A stretch of 64,000 bases of DNA. Source: Escherichia coli. GTDB lineage: Bacteria; Pseudomonadota; Gammaproteobacteria; Enterobacterales; Enterobacteriaceae. A program made the position numbers and the translations under genes. The stretch's first letter is position 1. Each line of letters starts with the position of its first letter. The stretch lies in the NCBI RefSeq assembly GCF_003334405.1, contig NZ_QOWM01000001.1; one strand, 5' to 3'. This document shows, piece by piece, positions 59,433 through 59,667 of the stretch. Below the pieces are notes generated by a model. The model ran no database searches. It saw only the letters and a program-made list of their open reading frames with translations, and had not been told where the DNA came from.

Positions 59433-59667
59433 TTCTGTTCTGTGCATCCCGTCACAAATTCCTCGCTTTTGTAATTCAGGCATTTAATCGCATTTTGTGA
59501 GCCTGCTCAAATCTGCCCATTTTGCCTCTCTGGCGGTAATTTACTTTACGTAAAACATGCATACTATGAGCACATGTTTAAATATGAACACATGTTTAAA
59601 CCGTCTTTGCAGTATCTATATTCTTGTGGATTGACAGGGTTGGTAATTTTTTACCAGAGGACGTGCT

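Follow-up and report, generated by a model that had tools for sequence, protein, structure and literature searches.

How transcription of the pseudouridine operon psuK-psuG-psuT of Escherichia coli is controlled, and by which protein, is the question raised by the DNA that precedes psuK. There, an earlier note on the same stretch had drawn attention to a perfect 10-bp palindrome and to two direct repeats, 70-120 bp before the psuK start, which were taken as likely operator sites for a regulator that was not established, with the remark that yeiL, a divergent gene of the CRP/FNR family, is found three genes away. The stretch analysed comprises 64,000 nucleotides (the window in the following). 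Its gene order is fruBKA, psuK, psuG, psuT, yeiL (on the opposite strand) and rihB, psuK being the first gene of psuK-psuG-psuT, with its ATG at 59668; the stretch matches E. coli K-12 MG1655 at 100% identity, the fruA-psuK intergenic region included, and is in reverse-complement orientation. The motifs are found exactly where they had been placed: the palindrome, TTTACGTAAA, is read at 59545-59554, and the repeats, TGAGCACATGTTTAAA and TGAACACATGTTTAAA, at 59567-59582 and 59585-59600, respectively. In agreement with the distance given, they lie 68-123 bp before the psuK ATG. As to the regulator, the literature searched (for a psuK regulator, for YeiL in connection with pseudouridine and for PfkB proteins in connection with repressors) gave nothing relevant, as the earlier note had supposed.

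The two copies of TGA(G/A)CACATGTTTAAA can each be extended by two bases to give a head-to-tail 18-bp repeat, TATGA(G/A)CACATGTTTAAA, at 59565-59582 and 59583-59600, in which 17 of the 18 positions are identical. It is the sole example of its kind in the window (at least 16 bp long, with at most one mismatch and an offset of 16-30), and a comparable direct repeat was met in none of 100 simulated 64-kb sequences, so that it is far beyond chance. The palindrome TTTACGTAAA is, instead, unremarkable, because 54 perfect 10-bp palindromes are present in the window and at least one occurs in 38% of first-order Markov simulations of the intergenic region (422 bp, 37% GC). At the same site, other Escherichia have TTTAAGTAAA and Citrobacter has TTTGTCAAAA, so that the palindrome is specific to the K-12 lineage (A in place of C at 59549 is a natural variant), and the part of it that is conserved corresponds only to the overlap with the -35 hexamer of the promoter described below. 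Thus, the proposal that these motifs are operators holds for the two repeats, which are conserved across genera and lie on the predicted promoter start, and is rejected for the palindrome, which is not conserved, has the frequency expected by chance and has no separate role.

Phylogenetic footprinting, which the earlier note had suggested, was carried out on 11 orthologous psuK loci, which came from E. albertii and further Escherichia lineages, from Citrobacter and Buttiauxella, and from a metagenome-assembled Raoultella genome; the alignment of the psuK upstream regions was later widened to include a strongly divergent haplotype of E. coli. When block identities are expressed as mean pairwise identity over the aligned regions, a CRP-like site, a -35 and a -10 hexamer and the two repeats, resolved as sites O1 and O2 (table 1), stand out with values of 0.79-0.95 compared with 0.50-0.59 elsewhere. 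Indeed, identity is 0.79 for O1 (59567-59580) and 0.84 for O2 (59585-59598), and it falls to 0.50 in the 4-bp linker between them (59581-59584) and to 0.56-0.59 in the leader and upstream DNA. In the main CRP-like site, TGTGAGCCTGCTCAAA, nine of the ten half-site bases match TGTGA-N6-TCACA. None of the 12 orthologous promoters departs from its TGTGA or its TCA.A, the site reading TGTGA-N6-TCA(A/T)A throughout. Similarly, bases T1, A2 and T6 of the -10 hexamer are invariant in all orthologues, in which it reads TACTAT, TATTAT or TATCAT.

Table 1. Coordinates of the features of the psuK upstream region within the window; identity is the mean pairwise identity over the aligned orthologous regions.
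Feature	Position	Strand	Remarks
Upstream CRP-like site TGTGCATCCCGTCACA	59441..59456	+	From a pattern scan; 9/10 half-site bases; 55 bp upstream of the main CRP site; status uncertain
CRP-like site TGTGA-GCCTGC-TCAAA (TGTGAGCCTGCTCAAA)	59496..59511	+	Centre 59503.5, ~-70.5 from the predicted start; identity 0.85
-35 hexamer TTTACT	59540..59545	+	Identity 0.95
Perfect 10-bp palindrome TTTACGTAAA	59545..59554		Overlaps the last -35 base and the spacer; lineage-specific, chance-level
-10 hexamer TACTAT	59562..59567	+	16-bp spacer from -35; identity 0.87
Putative operator O1, TGAGCACATGTTTA	59567..59580		Imperfect palindrome, centre 59573.5 (~+1); covers the last -10 base; conserved as TRARCAYRTGTTYR; 18.7 bits
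Predicted transcription start (+/-1-2 nt)	59574	+	Seven nt past -10; placed from the promoter elements; equivalent to NC_000913.3 2259390, minus strand
Putative operator O2, TGAACACATGTTTA	59585..59598		Centre 59591.5 (~+19), 18 bp from O1; conserved as YGAACAYRTGYTYW; 20.7 bits
Predicted 7-bp hairpin in the 5' UTR	59640..59657	+	Abuts the Shine-Dalgarno sequence GAGGA (59657-59661); identity 0.86
psuK (pseudouridine kinase, no HTH)	59668..60609	+	Annotation; NCBIfam NF007355, 714 bits

The position of this promoter, psuKp, is pinned by a mutation. The psuK/fruA intergenic region is a recurrent adaptive target when E. coli evolves in the mouse gut, where the same A-to-C change at NC_000913.2:2257444 arose in most mice; the authors assign it to the psuK promoter region, point out that intergenic changes can alter the expression of flanking genes, psuK included, and find that growth in vitro is changed by it (PMC7518454, PMC9509342, PMC6731689, PMC10340439). 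An A-to-C change in psuKp (psuK/fruA) was also reported in three populations of long-term stationary-phase cultures (PMC7858067); it is likely the same allele as the gut SNP. With an offset of +1978 between genome versions, which was confirmed by four srlR codon changes listed in the same published tables, the gut SNP maps to 59542 in the window. Read along the sense strand of psuK it is a T-to-G change (A-to-C in the reference orientation) that converts TTTACT into TTGACT, a classic -35 up-mutation. The SNP pins the -35 hexamer and, therefore, places O1 and O2 on the predicted start site. The TTGACT allele is found in 5 of the ~4040 complete genomes that match a 61-bp segment, namely the K-12 laboratory derivatives ER1821R, ER2683, S17-1 and ST18 and one pigeon isolate; since it is fixed in these K-12 derivatives, expression of psuKGT probably differs among common K-12 derivatives. 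A second candidate, TTTAAA-16-TATATT (59595-59622), which was the only plus-strand match of a promoter scan, is rejected as the main promoter, being not conserved and leaving the adaptive SNP unexplained.

From its elements, psuKp is predicted to be a weak sigma-70 promoter that depends on a class I CRP site at approximately -70.5. Seven Enterobacterales have 70-72 bp between the CRP site and the first operator, and the two Pasteurellaceae have 60 bp; these values match class I CRP positions when the operator lies on the start site. The main CRP site is absent from the published Footprint-seq CRP table (PMC12871828). The upstream CRP-like site, TGTGCATCCCGTCACA, is a good match in both Escherichia haplotypes and a weaker one in Citrobacter.

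The repeat resolves into two 14-bp imperfect palindromes, TGARCAYRTGYTYN, with the core AACA-N2-TGTT, the centres of which are 18 bp apart, and the O1/O2 pair is conserved in Escherichia, Citrobacter, Buttiauxella and Raoultella. The consensus of the sites is TGAACAYRTGTTYA, with a conserved core GAACAY-RTGTTC, the O2 of E. albertii being a perfect palindrome (GAACATATGTTC), and the central dinucleotide is CA, TG, CG or TA, i.e. always a pyrimidine-purine step. Outside the K-12-type haplotype, O1 and O2 are poor direct repeats of each other, each one remaining an imperfect palindrome. The difference lies in the right half of O2, which reads TGTTTAAAC in K-12-type Escherichia versus the ancestral TGCTCTAAT elsewhere, and which looks like the product of a local conversion (homogenization) of O2 to the O1 sequence. 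Such homogenization would account for the 17/18 direct repeat, and the near-perfect repeat first noticed is peculiar to the K-12-type lineage. Relative to the predicted start, O1 extends from approximately -7 to +7 and O2 from approximately +12 to +25, so that the pair overlaps the -10 hexamer, the start site and the early transcribed region. The repeats are, thus, best seen as a conserved pair of putative repressor-type binding sites on the start of the psuK promoter. Their positions at +1 and +19 make repression more likely than activation. With their centres 18 bp apart, O1 and O2 are turned to different sides of the helix, an unusual arrangement for dimers that bind cooperatively.

When a weight matrix built from the O1/O2 sites was run over the 64 kb of the window, only O1 and O2 scored above 12.2 bits, and the same was found over the 12.8 kb from lysP to psuK, with one chance match at 12 bits. 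No operator motif was found upstream of nfo-yeiI, yeiL, rihB or nupX or elsewhere in the window, so that the regulon would consist of a single operon and would offer no cross-check from a second target.

Which gene accompanies the operators was established by comparing the gene neighbourhoods. The hint that yeiL might encode the regulator is not borne out: E. albertii, Citrobacter, Buttiauxella and Raoultella all keep the operators but have no yeiL next to psuKGT. In these same genomes it is yeiI that follows psuT directly, in convergent orientation, and yeiI is also found directly after psuT in Affinibrenneria. In E. coli, yeiI lies within 4 kb of psuT, from which it is parted by an inserted yeiL-rihB-nupX block; outside E. 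coli, this block separates the two genes only in E. whittamii and the lineage of Escherichia sp. E1V33. Overall, yeiI is adjacent or at most 4 kb away in all 12 Enterobacteriaceae loci that have yeiI (the 11 psuK loci and that of Affinibrenneria). The gene that tracks the operators is, therefore, yeiI and not yeiL, and yeiI replaces yeiL as the candidate regulator gene. The lack of an operator motif upstream of nfo-yeiI makes it unlikely that yeiI of E. coli is autoregulated. At NC_000913.3 2251697-2251700, yeiI begins 2 nt past the stop codon of nfo, which encodes endonuclease IV; this arrangement is found also in Citrobacter, and the two genes are probably co-transcribed. The nfo gene itself belongs to the SoxRS regulon.

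YeiI has a winged helix of the HTH_24 family at its N-terminus (residues 1-48, E = 4e-11) and, after it, a kinase domain of the PfkB type (residues 58-348, E = 1e-61). It has been described as uncharacterized (PMC9061257, PMC12506659) or as a hypothetical transcription factor, the NCBIfam label of its family is merely 'sugar kinase', and a search for solved structures returned none that covers the HTH. YeiI and PsuK are paralogues, with 38% identity. In the structure of PUKI, residues S30, N143 and K170 are the determinants of pseudouridine binding (PMC9061257), and all three are kept in every sequence compared, including YeiI; the anion-hole motif, GAGD in the other sequences, is GADD only in YeiI. 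Furthermore, a psuK mutant cannot use pseudouridine although yeiI is present (PMC12506659). Retention of the binding residues, alteration of the anion hole and the phenotype of the psuK mutant together fit YeiI as a sensor rather than an enzyme.

HTH-PfkB homologues with the architecture of YeiI are widespread, and it is in distant genomes that they are found joined to the pseudouridine genes. Such a protein is encoded by the first gene of the psuG operon in Serratia, Yersinia, Xenorhabdus, Pasteurella, Chelonobacter, Shewanella, Aliivibrio, Ferrimonas and one Burkholderiaceae genome, and these fused HTH-psuK/psuG(/psuT) operons usually include also a NupC-type transporter; the layout in Affinibrenneria is split and Citrobacter-like. 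Identity to the fused Yersinia and Serratia proteins is 59-60% for E. coli PsuK, over the kinase part, and 51% overall for YeiI, the HTH of which is 69% identical to that of the Yersinia fused protein. Across the nine distant genomes the HTH-PfkB gene is the only regulator-type gene always present in the operon, and AACA-N2-TGTT, with at most one mismatch, is found upstream in all nine fused operons (e.g. AACCAAACACTTGTTTGGTT in Yersinia and GCAAACATATGTTTGC in Shewanella). The putative own site of a fused HTH-PsuK (e.g. of Yersinia or Serratia) has the form AACCAAACA-N2-TGTTTGGTT. In five of the nine operons (Pasteurella, Chelonobacter, Shewanella, Aliivibrio and Ferrimonas) the motif occurs as a pair 18-19 bp apart; a single site is found in Yersinia, Xenorhabdus and the Burkholderiaceae genome. 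When 2304 palindromic patterns were ranked without bias by their occurrence in the first seven regions, AACA-N2-TGTT came top, being present exactly in six of the seven, the runner-up (three of seven) was AACA-N2-TGTT in a shifted frame and unrelated patterns reached at most two.

Taken as a whole, these observations are best explained by a model, to which we assign a probability of about 0.6 on comparative grounds, in which the O1/O2 pair at psuKp would be bound by YeiI acting as a pseudouridine-responsive repressor of psuKGT. The weak psuKp would be activated from the class I CRP site at approximately -70.5; a YeiI dimer, or a pair of dimers, would sit on O1 and O2 at approximately +1 and +19, blocking open-complex formation or promoter escape; and the kinase-like domain would bind pseudouridine or a derivative (e.g. 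its phosphate), upon which YeiI would leave the DNA. No description of YeiI as the regulator of psuKGT was found in the literature searched. A wider reading, for which we would lay even odds, is that wHTH-PfkB proteins form an uncharacterized family of one-component regulators that derive from kinases and control pseudouridine catabolism. One polypeptide would be both pseudouridine kinase and autorepressor of its operon in most Gamma- and some Betaproteobacteria, and the ancestral gene would have been duplicated, and its jobs split, in the lineage of Escherichia, Citrobacter, Buttiauxella and Affinibrenneria. The products would be an HTH-less enzyme, PsuK, and an HTH-bearing sensor, YeiI, in which GAGD changed to GADD, and E. 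coli would have in YeiI a repressor dedicated to pseudouridine. Upstream of E. coli psuK, no significant trace of a lost HTH coding sequence was detected (tblastn E = 1).

The assignment of YeiI comes from comparative genomics, so that it has to be asked whether the operators, being real, are bound by some other factor (of the DeoR/GlpR type, CytR or a new regulator), the link with HTH-PfkB genes being then one of mere synteny. The right half of O1, the linker and the left half of O2 can also be parsed as a TGTT-N8-AACA palindrome (TGTTCGATATTGAACA in C. werkmanii), and palindromes of this kind resemble GlpR-type operators, but the single-site Yersinia, Xenorhabdus and Burkholderiaceae carry AACA-N2-TGTT and not TGTT-N8-AACA. 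Likewise, the two CRP-like sites 55 bp apart recall CytR-controlled nucleoside promoters, in which tandem CRP sites ~53 bp apart flank the CytR octamers; however, the second CRP-like site, which is found in Escherichia only, and any CytR-like octamers are not conserved in Citrobacter, and no convincing GTTGCATT octamers are seen by eye. A further point in favour of another factor is offered by the evolution experiments, in which the psuK locus is changed by one specific -35 SNP. Repeated knockouts are seen in the repressor genes dgoR, frlR, srlR and glpR, but the texts searched report none in yeiI. Their absence would be surprising if the operon were useful and the loss of YeiI were enough to derepress it fully; it would be explained by a weak, CRP-dependent promoter or by inducer already present in the gut, and would also be expected were YeiI not a simple repressor. 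Set against this is the constant presence of HTH-PfkB as the sole regulator-type gene in the operons of the nine distant genomes, and we regard binding by another factor as unlikely.

That YeiL itself binds O1 and O2 is most improbable. In layout (5-N4-5), TGAAC-N4-GTTCA would suit an FNR-type site, and yeiL belongs to the same nucleoside gene cluster in E. coli, but the co-occurrence fails at the loci of the four groups named above, and the distant genomes with the motif have an HTH-kinase in the operon instead. Furthermore, yeiL was reportedly found by Anjum et al. in 2000 to be autoregulated, and the absence of a similar site from the yeiL-rihB intergenic region counts, therefore, against YeiL. 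The repeats could also act as RNA, if their transcript formed a 5'-terminal stem-loop that stabilizes the psuK mRNA or modulates its translation. Indeed, the predicted 5' UTR folds better than shuffled sequences (z = -3.2), with an 11-bp hairpin made of the right half of O1 and the left half of O2, but such a hairpin is the automatic by-product of two like palindromes, and O1, which overlaps the -10 hexamer, is only partly transcribed. The invariable pyrimidine-purine central step fits DNA recognition rather than pairing and, in Pasteurella and Chelonobacter, the right half of O1 and the left half of O2 are not complementary (by eye), whereas the DNA palindromes are kept; an RNA element is, accordingly, quite improbable. 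Finally, confinement of the 17/18 direct repeat to the K-12-type Escherichia haplotype, O2 ending in TGCTCTAAT elsewhere, is what a recent, functionless local duplication in AT-rich intergenic DNA would give. This explanation is scarcely credible, as both sites pre-date the homogenization and are conserved across genera, and the motif is conserved across orders.

Binding by YeiI, the reading preferred here, would bring psuKGT close to several known systems. In the ROK repressors NagC and Mlc an HTH is fused to a sugar-kinase-like sensor domain, and palindromic operators lie at or near a promoter that is co-controlled by CRP. The likeness would be that of a local catabolic repressor the ligand-sensing domain of which is a paralogue of the pathway kinase (the binding by YeiI being conjectural); the difference is that the sensor fold of YeiI is PfkB/ribokinase-like rather than ROK/ASKHA, and that its DNA-binding domain is an HTH_24 of the Lrp/AsnC type. 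In BirA and NadR of E. coli an N-terminal HTH is joined to an enzyme domain, as in YeiI, and substrate or product controls DNA binding, but the enzyme folds are unrelated. RbkR, the archaeal bifunctional riboflavin kinase and regulator, is a winged helix fused to the kinase of the pathway that it regulates (PMC5397151). Its identification, too, came from comparing genomes for palindromic sites that precede its own operon; it differs in kinase family and in domain of life, and Escherichia and Citrobacter have the enzyme PsuK and the HTH-bearing paralogue YeiI as separate genes. YeiI would, thus, join the ROK repressors, RbkR and BirA as a regulator derived from an enzyme of the pathway, the PfkB fold being uncharacterized in such a role in the literature searched.

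As to promoter layout, deoP2, cdd and udp, controlled by CytR or DeoR, are alike in belonging to nucleoside catabolism and in combining an upstream CRP site with a repressor site inside the promoter, but psuKp has no conserved tandem CRP sites bracketing CytR octamers, and its operator is unrelated to the CytR and DeoR sites. The ARG boxes of ArgR are paired 18-bp palindromes, TGAAT-N4-ATTCA, ~3 bp apart and 21 bp from centre to centre. They share with O1 and O2 the paired 18-bp units, the 5-N4-5 palindrome and the overlap with the promoter; an ARG-box pair is, however, rejected on account of the 18-bp spacing without a gap and of the invariant C/G where ARG boxes have T/A. More generally, the consensuses of ArgR, KdgR, RutR, FabR, GlpR and LexA (Cheo-box), when compared by eye, fail on spacing or on invariant bases.

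If true, the model would provide function, operator and target operon for YeiI, one of the remaining uncharacterized predicted transcription factors of E. coli K-12, and would describe a regulator architecture, the kinase-fused wHTH-PfkB, that is uncharacterized in the literature searched. It would also give a mechanistic reading to a mutation that is among the most reproducible in the mouse gut and in stationary phase, namely as the -35 up-mutation of a weak, CRP-dependent and operator-controlled promoter. Finally, a candidate switch responsive to pseudouridine would become available while strains for pseudouridine production are being engineered around psuK and psuG.

Some observations concern the locus at large. 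Across the region from psuK to yeiI, E. coli has two deeply divergent haplotypes (~81% DNA identity), the divergent one being seen in E. coli KC-Dl-1 and AF5, which were compared with 59246-64000 of the window. The divergent psuK is found in 1201 and the divergent yeiI in 2060 of 5426 genomes, and these differing counts imply that recombinants exist. The upstream region of the divergent haplotype resembles that of E. albertii, and nupX is only a remnant there. The apparent lack of psuK in ~1200 E. coli genomes is rejected as an artefact of megablast sensitivity, since these genomes carry the ~81% identical allele.

In the predicted 5' UTR, the hairpin that abuts the Shine-Dalgarno sequence is found in single-sequence folds of every genus examined, with a compensatory change from UGGUAA/UUACCA to UGGCAA/UUGCCA (U-A to C-G, with U-G in E. 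albertii), and may affect translation or mRNA stability. Two more hairpins are present after fruA, at 59255-59287 and 59401-59434; in the second, the stem (59401-59424) is followed by a T-run ~155 nt past the fruA stop codon, which suggests either a long fruA 3' UTR or a small independent transcript. An Rfam scan of 58900-60000 returned only sub-threshold chance matches, and none for the hairpins downstream of fruA. The psuK gene of one duck isolate, E. coli BL12 (NZ_CP079780.1), carries an IS1 insertion.
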